NCBI RefSeq assembly: GCF_058153355.1
Contig: NZ_CM177019.1
Length of the DNA: 64,000 bases
Direction: 5' to 3' (one strand)
Shown here: positions 46,375 to 50,347 of the stretch, piece after piece
Layout of the letters: the number at the start of each line of letters is the position of its first letter
How positions within the stretch are numbered: position 1 is the first letter of the stretch
Notes under the pieces: model-generated
Seen by the model: only the letters and a program-made list of their open reading frames with translations
Database searches by the model: none
Told to the model about the DNA's origin: nothing
Program-made: the position numbers and the translations under genes

Positions 46375-46708
46375 CAGAAGCGATCCTCTTATGAGATGTA
46401 GGGTGACATGGCGATGCTCATTTCGTAGCCATAATCTAAAAATATCTACATTTCTGAAAAATGCGCACAAAAGCGACATATTGTTTTCTTATTGTGATCA
46501 AAAGCAACAAATTAGTAACATTTAATGTAGGGTATTAAGGCAAAGGAGACAGGAAATGAATAACTAAAGCAACAGGTTAGGGAGAGCTACCATCAGAGAA
46601 CAGATTATCTGGTCGATAAAAAACAGTAAATGGCTTCACTGCAAAATGACCGTTAGTAAACTAAACATATCATCTGCCCCGTTTTAGCGGGGCAGATATA
46701 ACATTAAA

Positions 46709-48962
46709 TTACAAATAGAAATAGTTCGGCGGTTCTCCTGTTTTCCCTAAAAGAAGAGCGCTGCGCCCAGGAATATTGATATTTAGAGCTCCGCCTCTAA
46801 GCGTAAATACTTTACCTAGGGGAATACTTTTGCGTGTATTATTATTATTAATGGTAACGCTATTACTCCCCATATTTTTATATATTCCTGGTTGCAATTT
46901 GTTAGGCCAGGTACCTTCAACTTCTTCGTTTCCTTTATTTATTATAACTAGTCCATCATGAGGAGAGTGATTAATGTTCACAGAATCCCCACGACTAAAG
47001 CCCAGAACATTTTTAGTTGCAAATACCCCCTCAAATGCGCTCCATATTCCTTCTTTATCTATATATAATGCGTGGAATTCATTGTAGAGCTGCTGATAGG
47101 TAGAGCAACCTTTATTAAGCCACGCCTCACCGCCGACACGAGTGGACCCATCATCATTTTTAATCTCAGTCGTTGATTTTAATACCTGACCATCCCAGTA
47201 AACTAAAGGCCTGCTGAACGGGAGAGCGGCCATATATGCCATTGCTAATTGTTCATCTTGCTGATGGTTAAATAAAAAGTCATTGAAAATGATTACCATT
47301 GTTAGGGAAATCGTGGTTGATGTTAATCAATATCCGTCTTTCTGATGGGATGCTTGAGATTGCGGAACCCGGTTTTGATGCAAGGGTTTGGAGATCTCCA
47401 CCGAATGAAAAGGCTTGTATCGTCTTCATGAGCAATGAAAAATCAATGGCGCTTAAATCATCTCTTTCATAAAGCAGCGATGACATTTGTTGTTCATCTA
47501 ACGGACAAGTTACCAGGTATTCCATGTAATTCATAACAGCTTTTTTTTGATATTTTGGATTAAATAAATTTGTATTGTGCAACCGCTCATTATAATTTTT
47601 AAGCGGTGGGGTTATCGACCTCTCTATTTGTTCATGTTTTGAGTGTTTTGCTGCATCATAACGTAAACCTCGTACGCCATATTTTCGCATTTCACGAACG
47701 TATTGATTTTGCAACATAATAACCTGGTCACTTTTGGGTGTTGTTTTAGGCATTCCATTTAAACGCTTTTCTTTTAATGCATGGAGGTTTTCCCATTCAT
47801 CCTTAGAAATATTATCTTTACTTGCTTCGAAGTCTTTTGCAGTGAGATGTATATCTTCTGGATGGATTTGGTCACGTTCTTTTGTTACTGGATCTATAAT
47901 AAAGGGAATCAAGACCTGACCTTGCCAATAGCCAGGGATACCACTTTCTATATCGTTTTTAATCTTCGCTCGTATATCGGCAGAGGGATAATCCAGATCA
48001 TTTTTACCACTTCCTCCGATCCCCATAAAGTTAAATGTATAATCAGGAATGATATCGATGCCAAATTTTTTGGCATCTTTAACCAATGCGATAAAATCCT
48101 GCAAATCTCCCATTGGATTATGGATGGTACAAAGATCTTCGGGTTGATAAGCGTGATACTAGTAACCTTTTTCTTCTTCAGGTGTTTCTGGTCCGTCGGC
48201 GCGGAAAGTTGTTACGGGAGGGATTTGTATATAACCATAATGGCAACGTGCAAACTCGGCCATATTTTTCCTGATTTGCTGGTAGGTGGCATTAAAAGCA
48301 TGAAGAATCGCCTCGCCAGGTTTTTTGGGTGTGATGATTTCACATTGTGATTTCTGATCAGCAGTAAGAGATTTATGCTCAAGTGTTTGCCGTAGATGTT
48401 CTGGATTGATTAATATTTTAAATGTTTCTTGCTGGCCGGAAGGTGACGTTACGTTAATATTATATACATCAGCTGCCAGTTCATAGTCAGGAATGTTAAT
48501 AGCATATGCAACATACTTATCTTTTGGAGACGGTTTGTCAGATATAATGTGAGTGAAATGTTCAGCTGGACCATACTGATGAACACCGCTGTTATCACCT
48601 CTTTCAATCATTGTATCTCGTTGATAAACCCATGTTTTTCCTTCTCCTATCCTGTCTGGCGCTGTAATGCTACGCTGTGCTGCTTTATTCAACTCTCGGT
48701 AAGTTGTATCTGGAAAAAGGGAAATTTTATAATCGTTTTTTAACAGATCATTAATGACTTTTTCTGCGTGAAAAGTTGATATAATTTCTCTGTCTTTTAA
48801 ATCCTGAGGATAAACTCCACAAGAATTAATAATATTTGTTATACAGTTTAGATATTCTAATGTATTTAATTTGGAATTTAGAACCCCGTCAGTAATGTTC
48901 CATGATAACAATGTGGGGTTGTCGATAGGTAAATTTCTTGGTCCTGGTTTTATAGAAAACAT
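46709..48962 (-). pseudogene. ygaQ: Alpha-amylase-family protein disrupted by one in-frame amber codon and one frameshift
   Basis: ORFs 48159..48962 and 47280..48113 are in the same frame, separated by TAG at 48159-48161; ORF 46709..47299 overlaps in another frame; GVRGLRYDAAKH glycoside-hydrolase region-II-like motif; low GC. Confidence 0.75.
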
Positions 48963-49521
48963 AATAAAGTTCCTCTAATGGTAGAGTAATATGGTGTATA
49001 CGGAAACATAAAAATGTTTAATTGTTGTGAAAGTAATTGCAAACAGATGTCCTACTTTTATCCAATATTTATATGGAAAAGGATAATGCTTAAATCTGTT
49101 TTTTTAATTATCGATGTGGTCTGGAGAGGCAACTGTCAAAAATCGCTCATACGAAACTAATGATTAGCAGAATAAGATCTATGAAAGAATATATTGCTAT
49201 ATGAAGTTTATTTTTATGGGGTGAAAAGTAACAGATATCATAATGATGCGAAAACTCTTCAGCTAATGTAATAAAGTTATATTATTAGATACAAAATCAT
49301 TACAAACTATCATTGAATCGATGGTAACTATAAATAGTGCTAAGTATTAGCATTTGCTTGTTGACTGAGAGTATCGACTTTGTGAATGGAAGCGGTGTCG
49401 GGTTTTATGTCGCAGGTAATGACGACCCAGGATGAATGAGAACGCATAAAAATCTGTTATTTACATCATAAGATCATCATGTTTATTGCGTGGTTTATAA
49501 GTATTGTTATTGCATACTCAA

Positions 49522-49597
49522 GGCCCTTTAGCTCAGTGGTTAGAGCAGGCGACTCATAATCGCTTGGTCGCTGGTTCAAGTCCAGCAAGGGCCACCA
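49522..49597 (+). tRNA. ileY: tRNA-Ile2 (anticodon CAU, lysidine-type)
   Basis: 76 nt GGCCCTTTAGCTCAGTGGTTAGAGCAGGCGACTCATAATCGCTTGGTCGCTGGTTCAAGTCCAGCAAGGGCCACCA; CAU anticodon; Ile2 rather than Met assigned from context. Confidence 0.85.
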
Positions 49598-50347
49598 AAT
49601 CAGCATTCACGTATCAGGAAGAGTTAAGGGTACAAGGGGTACTCGATGGCGGTCTATATTTCACGACTAACGCCATTTCAAGAAAGAAGTGTGGTGGGTG
49701 GTTTCGAATGAGGGCTGGTGTTTTGGTACGTGGCACGCCACTGCAATGTATTTATCCATCAGTACTCATTCAAAAGTACCTGGAAAAAATGCCCGCTATG
49801 CCAAGCGGGCAAATTGCTTACATGTGGAATTAAGTAATTAACGATAAAGCCAGAGTATTATCATTTATTATACCCATTCATTTAATCAGGTTAATTACTC
49901 AAATCACTGAACTATTCTCTGTTCGCTCACTTATGCTGAGTGAGTACCACGACCAATGTATGTAGAACAATGCCGTAGAGTAAGGATGAAATGTCTCTGC
50001 CACGCCTTAAACATCTACTACTGACTAGAACCGCCGTCGCATGCAGAAGAGTCTTGTGAGCGTTACAGGAGTCTGGCTTTGCTCATTAATCAACGCTATT
50101 TAGATATAAATTTCTAACACTCGAAAAATGATTTTCACTAATAAATTATAACGGGTGGTTTTTATCATACAGCGAAATAACCTTTTGTTTATTAAATTTA
50201 ACATTCCTGTGCTAAATTAATTAAAAGTACCATGTATAGCATATGAAGCTGTTAATGCCAGCAATTGTCTCAAATGAGCGATTTTTTATAGTGACAAACA
50301 ATAATAACATTAAAAATAATCATGTGACATTAACTGAGGAAAAGACA

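Follow-up and report, generated by a model that had tools for sequence, protein, structure and literature searches.

The tRNA gene ileY as probable cargo of a dispensable, composite AT-rich block between glaH and ssrA of Escherichia coli

Some tRNA genes are carried on mobile DNA, for example ileZ-argN-argO of the Stx phage 933W. For the locus described here, ygaQ is already treated as H-NS-silenced, horizontally acquired DNA (PMC7229825). The rare-codon tRNA gene ileY is known to be strain-variable, its presence differing among laboratory strains (PMC3032704), and to serve as attB, since phage 186 and SpLE1-like elements use ileY/ileX (PMC3448106, PMC8767318). Our finding is mostly known biology and routine for this E. 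coli hot spot, which was known before.

The ssrA-csiD interval of K-12 comprises CP4-57, psaA, ypjA, pinH', ypjB/ypjC, ileY and ygaQ. The window, a stretch of 64,000 nucleotides analysed as a whole, shows the order and orientation of K-12 b2647-b4462, is 89-95% identical to it throughout and matches the ssrA attR remnant that K-12 carries at the same position. However, the window belongs to a different lineage, with R32_14_1F as the nearest strain. The separate ypjC and ypjB of K-12 are fused into an intact ypjCB, the lesions in ygaQ differ, and the island past the attR is distantly related to CP4-57 (67-76% identity).

Base composition and codon usage were determined across the window. A preliminary description had claimed that AT-rich DNA lies 5′ as well as 3′ of ileY. 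This was confirmed, as the region 46480-50242, which includes the tRNA at 49522-49597, has a GC content of 0.371 compared to 0.56 in the gab/glaH genes. Windows of the same size left of 46000 have a mean GC content of 0.518 (sd 0.025, minimum 0.453), which places the region about 6 sd lower. In the sliding profile, GC falls from 0.50-0.59 to 0.29-0.43 at 46250-46500, remains low until about 52700 and is intermediate until about 54700, so that the AT-richness does persist through ygaQ, the tRNA and onward as described. The drop had been placed after the csiD start at about 46480; the fall itself is at this place, but 46480 is merely the ATG of the longest ORF and the true start codon of glaH (csiD) is at 46374. 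By segment, GC amounts to 0.378 in ygaQ, 0.309 in the spacer between ygaQ and ileY, 0.404 in the 3′ flank of ileY and 0.342 in ypjCB, and to 0.426 for the whole block from 46573 to 57420 that is delimited below. The sliding-window and codon-usage checks suggested earlier thus revealed a non-uniform composition, with GC of 0.31-0.40 compared to 0.56 and GC3 of 0.30-0.31 in AT-rich coding regions (0.31 in ygaQ) compared to 0.65-0.67 in the flank. AUA codons number 12-27 per 1000 in the AT-rich genes and 2-3 in the flank. This enrichment is due to the AT-richness and is no independent evidence of foreignness.

A drop in GC could also reflect chance or local regulation, for example an AT-rich promoter or a tract of curved DNA, and not accessory DNA. 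The DNA upstream of glaH and of ileY is indeed AT-rich and intergenic. However, the low GC extends over more than 6 kb and includes long coding regions with a GC3 of 0.30-0.31, it is about 6 sd under the rest of the window, and the low-GC span matches the presence/absence boundaries exactly. This explanation has a negligible probability and is refuted by the composition together with the boundary alignments to JJ1887.

The tRNA gene was located as follows:

49522..49597, plus strand: ileY, predicted tRNA-Ile2 with anticodon CAU (ARAGORN; Rfam 73.8 bits)

By its sequence, ileY is assigned to tRNA-Ile2 (CAU, lysidine-modified; ileX family); the RefSeq label tRNA-Ile is given by similarity. The gene forms a cloverleaf with a CAU anticodon, and its Rfam score of 73.8 bits compares to 73.1 for ileX. 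It shares 74 of 76 nucleotides with ileX of K-12, the only change being the compensatory pair C6-G67 to U6-A67, and the flanks of the two genes are unrelated. With 97% identity to ileX and a GC-rich sequence, the tRNA itself is not compositionally foreign, which counts against its being cargo of the surrounding DNA. An Rfam scan of positions 44000-64000 found the tRNA alone, with no sRNA and no riboswitch. The ileY locus occurs in approximately 2881 E. coli genomes, while many others show only ileX. A related tRNA is present in 136 phage records and in some plasmids.

The limits of the AT-rich DNA were defined by alignment with other genomes:

45397..46374, minus strand: glaH (csiD) coding sequence (RefSeq annotation transferred from the closest genome; ORF list)
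46375..46572, no strand: glaH promoter/5′ region, the last DNA common to all Escherichia haplotypes and the left boundary of the block
46573..57420, no strand: AT-rich dispensable block of 10,848 bp (window compared with JJ1887, spacer alignment, composition)
57421..57567, no strand: native ssrA 3′ flank, the right boundary of the block (88-91% identical to DNA downstream of ssrA in E. whittamii, E1V33 and JJ1887)

In the alignment with JJ1887, homology of the window ends at 46572 and restarts at 57421, in the ssrA 3′ flank. The block lies between the glaH promoter and this native flank, where 'empty' genomes instead have about 330 bp of ssrA-glaH spacer. On the left side, alignment of 46375-46572 with JJ1887, E. 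whittamii, E1V33, E. albertii and K-12 showed firm homology up to about 46520 and a weaker similarity from there to about 46575. The conserved flanking gene glaH shows 94% nucleotide identity to E. albertii. In E. whittamii and Escherichia sp. E1V33, about 730 bp separate ssrA from glaH, and this interval contains neither a tRNA nor ygaQ. If its ssrA prophage is left out of account, JJ1887 (B2) has the orthologous spacer, again without ileY and ygaQ, and about 20% of E. coli genomes, JJ1887 and 536 among them, have an ssrA-glaH spacer of about 0.7 kb in which both genes are missing. Counts by BLAST coverage class, not from a curated pan-genome, put the spacer core in 1104 of 5426 E. coli genomes and the entire block region in 2859 of them. 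Comparison with genomes that lack the flanking DNA (E. whittamii, E1V33 and JJ1887, all with the spacer) therefore demonstrated that relatives do not have identical content. The block qualifies as a dispensable islet, with a presence/absence polymorphism, a definable empty site and an atypical composition (GC 0.43 compared to 0.56), and this explains why about 45% of E. coli genomes get by with ileX alone. Because ileY is missing along with its flanks from the empty-site genomes, it is part of the accessory DNA. We consider it probable that ileY is cargo of a dispensable composite AT-rich block at 46573-57420, and not a core tRNA beside which foreign DNA landed.

The block can be divided into two modules:

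46573..49919, no strand: module 1, ygaQ, ileY and a 322-bp 3′ flank (blastn against E. albertii L007/L013)
46709..48962, minus strand: ygaQ pseudogene, alpha-amylase-family glycosyl hydrolase (Pfam Alpha-amylase_C / Alpha-amylase)
48963..49521, no strand: AT-rich spacer upstream of ileY (GC 0.309)
49598..49919, no strand: resident ileY 3′ flank, part of module 1 (75-86% identical to E. albertii)
49920..57420, no strand: module 2, ypjCB, pinH fragment and ypjA (annotation of the closest genome and K-12)
50348-51802, plus strand: ypjCB, ypjC and ypjB as one fused gene (Pfam DUF5507+DUF5508)
approximately 52164-52290, plus strand: pinH serine-recombinase fragment of about 125 bp (annotation)
52738-57411, plus strand: ypjA, AIDA-type autotransporter (Pfam AIDA/Pertactin/Autotransporter)

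Module 1 recurs in E. albertii, a basal Escherichia species, at the same glaH junction but in deeply diverged form, with the gene order ssrA-2.4 kb-tRNA(CAU)-ygaQ-glaH. In blastn comparisons with strains L007/L013, positions 46835-48835 (ygaQ) are 67% and positions 49448-49919 75% identical, with values of 75-86% for the ileY region, and homology ends sharply at 49919. In E. albertii, ygaQ, ileY and the 322 bp on its 3′ side are found together as a single unit. The final 75 bp or so of the spacer upstream of ileY also show conservation in E. albertii, and the ileY promoter is presumably located there. A simple sigma-70 scan flagged no site directly upstream of ileY; promoter-like sites around the gene were fewer than in shuffles, and the scan is therefore uninformative on the ileY promoter. 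On its minus strand, the 3′ flank contains a terminator-like site at 49790-49811, formed by a GC-rich hairpin and a T-run. Breakpoints found in other genomes at 47818, 49643 and 49867 were rejected as module boundaries, as they represent IS3, P2-remnant and IS1 deletions.

Compared to the intact 750-aa allele of R32_14_1F, ygaQ of the window carries a W268* mutation at 48160 and one additional A at 47290. The gene was inactivated independently in the window and in K-12, by different lesions. At least three ygaQ alleles are known, of which the E. coli type and the E. albertii type are full-length and the third is a 126-aa remnant in E2348/69, whose protein is 52% and 69% identical to the E. coli and E. 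albertii types, respectively. Between the two full-length types, synonymous sites are saturated under purifying selection (pS 0.72, dN/dS 0.13), and the divergence of ygaQ between E. coli and E. albertii is above that of every flanking gene (flanking dS 0.1-0.8). Fast evolution of ygaQ was rejected as the cause of this deep divergence, as the gene differs by 1-5% within E. coli, compared to 3-5% for the gab genes. A search for the E. albertii-type module in E. coli found no genome that carries it, and only the E2348/69 remnant surfaced. Homologues of YgaQ are essentially limited to Escherichia. The only relative outside this genus found in a donor search was a gut-metagenome protein, which was rejected as a donor lead owing to its 35% identity and a contig with no tRNA-Ile or glaH near the gene. 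How deeply the ygaQ-ileY alleles have diverged between Escherichia species is a minor point that may be new. Separately, the gab operon adjoining the block looks exchanged with Pseudocitrobacter, a minor observation that may likewise be new.

At the E. albertii locus no match to module 2 was found, and among the matches listed, YpjCB homologues are from E. coli/Shigella. Module 2 begins 322 bp past ileY and not at the 3′ end of the tRNA. Of two independent acquisitions flanking the tRNA, as suggested earlier, the composite nature of the block and the absence of module 2 from E. albertii are retained; the division does not fall at the tRNA, as module 1 extends 322 bp to its 3′ side. These data also bear on the possibility that ileY is an ancestral core tRNA gene and that each of its sides received an unrelated island in an independent event. 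A composite block with a boundary at 49919/49920 and a module 2 absent from E. albertii would fit this possibility, as would a tRNA nearly identical to the native ileX and working as attB in other strains (PMC8767318, PMC3448106). However, the spacer genomes of E. whittamii, E1V33 and JJ1887, which are without the AT-rich DNA, are also without the tRNA, ygaQ, ileY and the 322-bp flank travel as a single unit in E. albertii, and module 2 starts 322 bp past the tRNA with neither an att repeat nor an integrase. We therefore regard a core ileY as very improbable.

The block was searched for an integrase and for attachment sites. No tyrosine integrase is encoded between 46573 and 57420, the only genes being the ygaQ pseudogene, ypjCB, the pinH fragment and ypjA. 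No second ileY 3′ end was found in the 64 kb with a 25-mer (up to 3 mismatches) or a 15-mer (up to 2 mismatches), and blastn-short of the 64-kb window with a 47-nt att segment and with the whole tRNA matched only the tRNA itself. The search for direct repeats of the tRNA 3′ end downstream, suggested as a check, thus had a negative outcome for the whole window. Repeats common to both block ends do not exceed a 9-mer, which is the chance level. An island integrated at ileY would have DNA on the 3′ side only and leave the tRNA in the empty site; here AT-rich DNA is on both sides and the empty-site genomes are without the tRNA. Neither module is an island integrated at ileY.

True insertions at ileY do exist in other strains, and their junctions define the following segment:

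49551..49597, plus strand: unoccupied attB, the 3′ 47 nt of ileY (junction sequences of ET776 and LHM10-1)

This segment is duplicated as attR where integrative elements insert at ileY in other strains, and the 3′ half of ileY has phage attP-like matches. In ET776, an integrase-bearing island of about 33 kb has an intact (hybrid) ileY on one side and a 47-nt attR on the other; beyond the attR come the resident flank and then ypjCB. The island inserts between ileY and the flank, and 49598-49919 stays joined to ypjCB. In strains with a true ileY-integrated island, the ypjCB side therefore behaves as resident flank. With the integrase and the tRNA 3′-end repeat missing as well, the view that ypjC-ypjA entered by integration at ileY finds no support.

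On the ssrA side, one further feature was assigned:

57568..57584, minus strand: degenerate copy of the ssrA 3′ end (attR) (pattern match with 2 mismatches to the K-12 psaA region)

By sequence alone this attR is weak, as the same pattern matched at least once in 14 of 100 shuffles. It is syntenic with 'psaA' of K-12, and JJ1887 has a full-length ssrA attR at the same position. Next to the conserved ssrA flank, this 3′-end repeat (weak by sequence) marks the edge of a CP4-57-like island that occupies 57585-64000 and beyond. In other strains, the ssrA site carries lambdoid, P2-like, EspC or defence islands. A hairpin lies in the ssrA flank at about 57424-57447, just past the ypjA stop codon, and in LHM10-1 only the native ssrA flank separates ypjA from ssrA. 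No ssrA 3′-end remnants were found near 46573 or within the block. Since the ygaQ-ileY-ypjA block is beyond the native flank (57421-57567), it is not itself an element integrated at the ssrA att site. As to where the boundary and any attachment sites actually lie, which was raised earlier, the block spans 46573-57420, and the att sequences are the empty 47-nt attB in ileY and the degenerate ssrA attR; an att repeat of an ileY island was not among them.

We propose that module 1 (ygaQ-ileY-322 bp) would be an old unit that E. coli and E. albertii have at one and the same junction with glaH, to which module 2 (ypjCB-pinH'-ypjA) may have been added, or exchanged, separately. Neither would have been placed by site-specific integration into ileY, and AT-rich DNA on the 5′ side of the tRNA is then to be expected. 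In the window, ileY is an unoccupied attB whose 3′ 47 nt serve phage 186-type/CP4-like elements in other strains, and the active integration site of the region would be ssrA, with the CP4-57-like island starting at 57585. The block was presumably gained rather than lost, ileY probably derives from an ileX-like enterobacterial gene, and it may help to decode the surrounding AUA-rich genes.

The direction of change was addressed with 37 Enterobacteriaceae glaH loci. Outside Escherichia, no ssrA or tRNA-Ile was found within 10 kb of glaH; there is consequently no outgroup for the ancestral haplotype, and polarity is unproven. The presence of module 1 in E. albertii and the third-allele remnant in E2348/69 make the block haplotype very old, and it could be ancestral, with the 'empty' spacer as the replacement. 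In a stronger form, the block, or at least ygaQ-ileY, would be ancestral to Escherichia, the 'empty' genomes would be secondary losses or replacements, and ileY would be part of old, AT-rich, H-NS-bound native DNA. The single glaH-proximal junction in E. coli, E. albertii, MOD1-EC7003 and E2348/69 is consistent with this, the three ygaQ alleles with saturated synonymous sites between the two full-length types point to great age, and recurrent IS- and prophage-mediated deletions are documented (also in PMC3032704). On the other hand, deletion cannot create an orthologous spacer of about 330 bp that is common to E. whittamii, E1V33 and 20% of E. coli and is missing from block-bearing genomes. 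The block also deviates strongly from the rest of the genome in composition and codon usage, and ygaQ has diverged between E. coli and E. albertii more than all flanking genes (dS 0.1-0.8), although not faster within E. coli. An ancestral block thus appears unlikely. The earlier suggestion that ileY arrived with the element fits best, as the gene is missing with both flanks from the spacer genomes and is paired with ygaQ in E. albertii; gain as opposed to an ancient polymorphism is not fully polarised.

A bolder reading of the same module is that ygaQ-ileY is an ancient self-contained cassette under trans-species presence/absence and deep-allele polymorphism, whose private tRNA-Ile2 would be co-inherited with AUA-rich xenogeneic genes and, owing to its location in H-NS/Hha-bound AT-rich DNA, also co-silenced with them. 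The tRNA would then be a translational 'licence' and not a spare ileX. We regard this reading as improbable.

With ileY as the probable cargo of the block, the variable DNA of this much-used E. coli region is bounded at 46573 and 57420 and does not extend from the tRNA outward. Its only att sequences are the empty 47-nt attB within ileY and the decayed ssrA attR at 57568-57584, which guards against labelling ypjC-ypjA an "ileY island".

Like cargo tRNAs of mobile DNA, for example phage tRNA-Ile2, ileY is dispensable, is the second tRNA-Ile(CAU) gene and lies within accessory DNA rich in AT and in AUA codons. Unlike these, it has no surrounding phage or plasmid backbone, integrase or att sites, and it is carried by a decayed islet with a single, fixed location in the chromosome. 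The gene contains the attB of the phage 186, SpLE1-like and CP4-like elements that target ileX/ileY (PMC8767318; PMC3448106). In ET776 and LHM10-1, such an insertion has the form of a textbook tRNA island, with an intact tRNA, an island with integrase and a 47-nt attR. In contrast, the attB of the window is empty, and the DNA flanking ileY is without the defining features of an island and is present on both sides. The DNA from 57585 onward, ssrA-integrated and with a degenerate attR at its edge, resembles the ssrA (tmRNA) hot spot with its tandem islands.

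The 42-58 kb part of the window corresponds to the E. coli gabD-lhgO-glaH(csiD) / ygaQ / ileY / ypjCB / pinH' / ypjA region, beyond which a CP4-57-like island begins. The window shares 98-99% identity with strain R32_14_1F and 89-95% with K-12.

Features between glaH and the end of ypjA (window positions)
45397-46374, minus strand: glaH, start codon at 46374
46709-48962, minus strand: ygaQ
49522-49597, plus strand: ileY, tRNA-Ile2 gene with anticodon CAU
50348-51802, plus strand: ypjCB, Pfam DUF5507+DUF5508
about 52164-52290: pinH fragment
52738-57411, plus strand: ypjA, AIDA-type autotransporter

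Homology to the B2 strain JJ1887 continues through glaH as far as 46572 and returns at 57421, leaving an AT-rich block of 10,848 bp (46573-57420, GC 0.426). The native DNA directly downstream of the tmRNA gene ssrA occupies 57421-57567 and matches the sequence 3' of ssrA in JJ1887, E. whittamii and Escherichia sp. E1V33 at 88-91% identity; in LHM10-1, only this flank lies between ypjA and ssrA. Next, at 57568-57584, comes a degenerate repeat of the 3' end of ssrA, which is syntenic with both 'psaA' of K-12 and the full-length JJ1887 attR. Therefore, the DNA from 57585 onward belongs to an ssrA-integrated island.

The preliminary description reported a sharp drop in composition and AT-rich DNA on both sides of the tRNA, which recalculation bears out. 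The GC content of 46480-50242 is 0.371, compared to a mean of 0.518 ± 0.025 (minimum 0.453) for windows of the same size in the left 46 kb. The profile falls at 46250-46500 and then stays at 0.29-0.43 up to about 52.7 kb, with values of 0.378 in ygaQ, 0.309 in the spacer upstream of ileY, 0.404 in the ileY 3' flank and 0.342 in ypjCB. GC3 is 0.30-0.31 in the AT-rich genes here versus 0.65-0.67 in gabD, lhgO and glaH. The drop had been placed right after a csiD start region at about 46480; however, 46479 is merely the ATG of the longest open reading frame, and conserved DNA extends beyond the true start codon to about 46572. AUA occurs 12-27 times per 1000 codons in block genes and 2-3 times in gab genes. 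Since AT-richness alone predicts high AUA usage in block genes, this usage is only suggestive of a functional match with ileY.

Two origins had been proposed for this arrangement, namely two acquisitions flanking the tRNA or arrival of ileY with the element. In E. whittamii and Escherichia sp. E1V33, a tRNA-free interval of about 730 bp separates the ssrA end from the glaH start codon. Apart from its ssrA prophage, JJ1887 has the orthologous spacer, and the central ~330 bp of this spacer type is without counterpart in the window. Of 5426 complete E. coli genomes, 1104, strain 536 among them, have the spacer core, 2859 the full ygaQ-ileY-ypjCB region and 2881 the ileY locus; in the rest, the region is cut down by IS elements or prophages. 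Many genomes have ileX, the near-identical second gene, alone. Thus, ileY is dispensable and is missing jointly with both flanks.

E. albertii divides the block in two. Two strains show the order ssrA-2.4 kb-tRNA(CAU)-ygaQ-glaH and lack ypjCB-ypjA. Nucleotide identity to the window is 67% in ygaQ and 75% over 49448-49919 (86% in the last 227 bp), and homology stops sharply at 49919. These limits define module 1 (46573-49919) and module 2 (49920-57420). Relatives of YgaQ are confined to Escherichia, save one metagenomic protein at 35% identity, and every YpjCB homologue among the matches listed comes from E. coli or Shigella. The YpjCB allele of the window has just 78-81% protein identity to common E. 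coli alleles. DNA identity to K-12 is only 89% over 51076-53426 versus about 95% in adjoining DNA, and 50243-53426 is a locally hyper-diverged stretch within module 2. In the ileY 3' flank conserved with E. albertii, a GC-rich minus-strand hairpin with a T-run (49790-49811), for which Rfam gave no match, could be the terminator of an unannotated transcript running leftward; this strand also has promoter-like sites, at 49894-49867 and 50191-50164.

Integration of an island at ileY itself was assessed with E. coli ET776 as a positive control. There, an integrase-bearing island of ~33 kb, carrying a CbtA/YeeU toxin-antitoxin pair, an antirestriction gene, type I R-M genes and other defence genes, sits between ileY and a 47-nt attR. 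This attR, also found in LHM10-1, has exactly the sequence of window 49551-49597, with the resident flank and then ypjCB beyond it; the crossover block in common is GACTCATAATCGCTTGGTCG. In the window, the attB in ileY is empty. No tyrosine integrase was found in 46573-57420, no terminal repeats at the block ends and, where a direct repeat of the tRNA 3' end had been suggested as a check, no second copy in the whole 64 kb. Module 2 starts 322 bp beyond the tRNA, not at its 3' end. In these respects, the block is not an island inserted at ileY. In line with the ET776 structure, phage 186 integrates at ileY/ileX (PMC3448106), and the two genes have attB in common, so that SpLE1-like elements can occur at either (PMC8767318).

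In ET776 (locus L093 16458-16533; L092 ~20001-20047), the functional ileY after integration, at attL, is a hybrid whose 3' half, comprising the T-arm and 3' acceptor strand, is element-derived (GTTGGTTCAAACCCAAC...AGGGGCC), resulting in a U6-G67 wobble. Integration events are thus able to replace the 3' half of ileY, which might account for the difference between ileX and ileY in the acceptor stem. The sole difference of the window ileY from K-12 ileX is the compensatory pair C6-G67 to U6-A67; the flanks are unrelated. The E. albertii tRNA at the ileY position (locus L007 9408-9483) has an ileX-type acceptor stem and three U-to-C changes, one of them at T-loop position 54, where T is near-universal. 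It scores 69.2 bits versus 73-74 and is possibly a weakened copy. Related tRNA-Ile2 genes were found in 136 phage genomes. Elsewhere in the window, a tRNA cluster (16920-17547) comprises Ser(GCU) and three Arg(ACG) genes, and an overlapping opposite-strand Arg-TCG call by ARAGORN (17036-17107) is probably spurious.

Between E. coli and E. albertii, ygaQ shows a saturated pS of 0.72, a dN of 0.31 and a dN/dS of 0.13, with flanking dS of 0.10-0.37 on the gab side and 0.17-0.80 on the smpB side. Faster evolution as the cause was ruled out, as ygaQ diverges by 1-5% within E. coli versus 3-5% in the flank; the deep divergence therefore reflects age, not rate. A 126-aa 'hypothetical protein' beside glaH and the EspC island of E. 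coli E2348/69 (locus L095 6949-7329) is what remains of the C-terminal part of a third, deeply diverged ygaQ allele; its protein identity is 69% to YgaQ of E. albertii and 52% to that of the common E. coli type. In Escherichia sp. MOD1-EC7003 (locus L019 1526-2341), the block-type junction upstream of glaH, which corresponds to window 46573-46717, leads into an ankyrin-repeat ORF of 271 aa in place of ygaQ, another cargo at this junction. Several deeply diverged haplotypes thus have the glaH-proximal junction in common, which would be compatible with either gain of the block or ancient polymorphism. The window ygaQ carries W268* and a +1 frameshift, that of K-12 three internal stops, and those of MB19, ET776 and 23CRST022 an annotated internal stop; intact versions occur in R32_14_1F and in a protein cluster with 15,629 member sequences. 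At the sequence level, these differing lesions indicate recurrent, independent decay.

On the gab side, glaH-lhgO-gabD-gabT (38945-46521) is 96.2% identical to Pseudocitrobacter vendiensis (97.6% in the glaH-lhgO-gabD coding stretch), which is closer than K-12 or JJ1887 (95.3-95.4%) and E. albertii (94.3%). This homology stops at the glaH promoter and past csiR, and E. coli-E. albertii dS is 0.10-0.26 in gab genes, below 0.43-0.80 on the smpB side. Judging by these comparisons, the csiD-gab-csiR operon appears to be a module that has been exchanged between genera.

Our data place ileY within accessory DNA, as part of an islet in the ssrA-glaH hot spot that is old, decayed and built of two modules, and both sides of ileY are AT-rich because the tRNA gene itself is part of this islet. 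Of the proposed origins, that of ileY as part of the accessory DNA holds; that of two acquisitions holds for the modules, but not in the sense of two islands targeting a core tRNA. Relatives do differ in content: empty-spacer genomes lack ileY and E. albertii lacks module 2 genes. Hha binding near ileY has been reported (PMC2408971), and ygaQ has been used to illustrate acquired genes that are silenced by H-NS (PMC7229825). As the components of the islet and the variation in them have been described before (PMC3032704, PMC7229825, PMC8767318), we regard the finding as ordinary; the sole mildly unexpected element is the deep allelic divergence of ygaQ-ileY.
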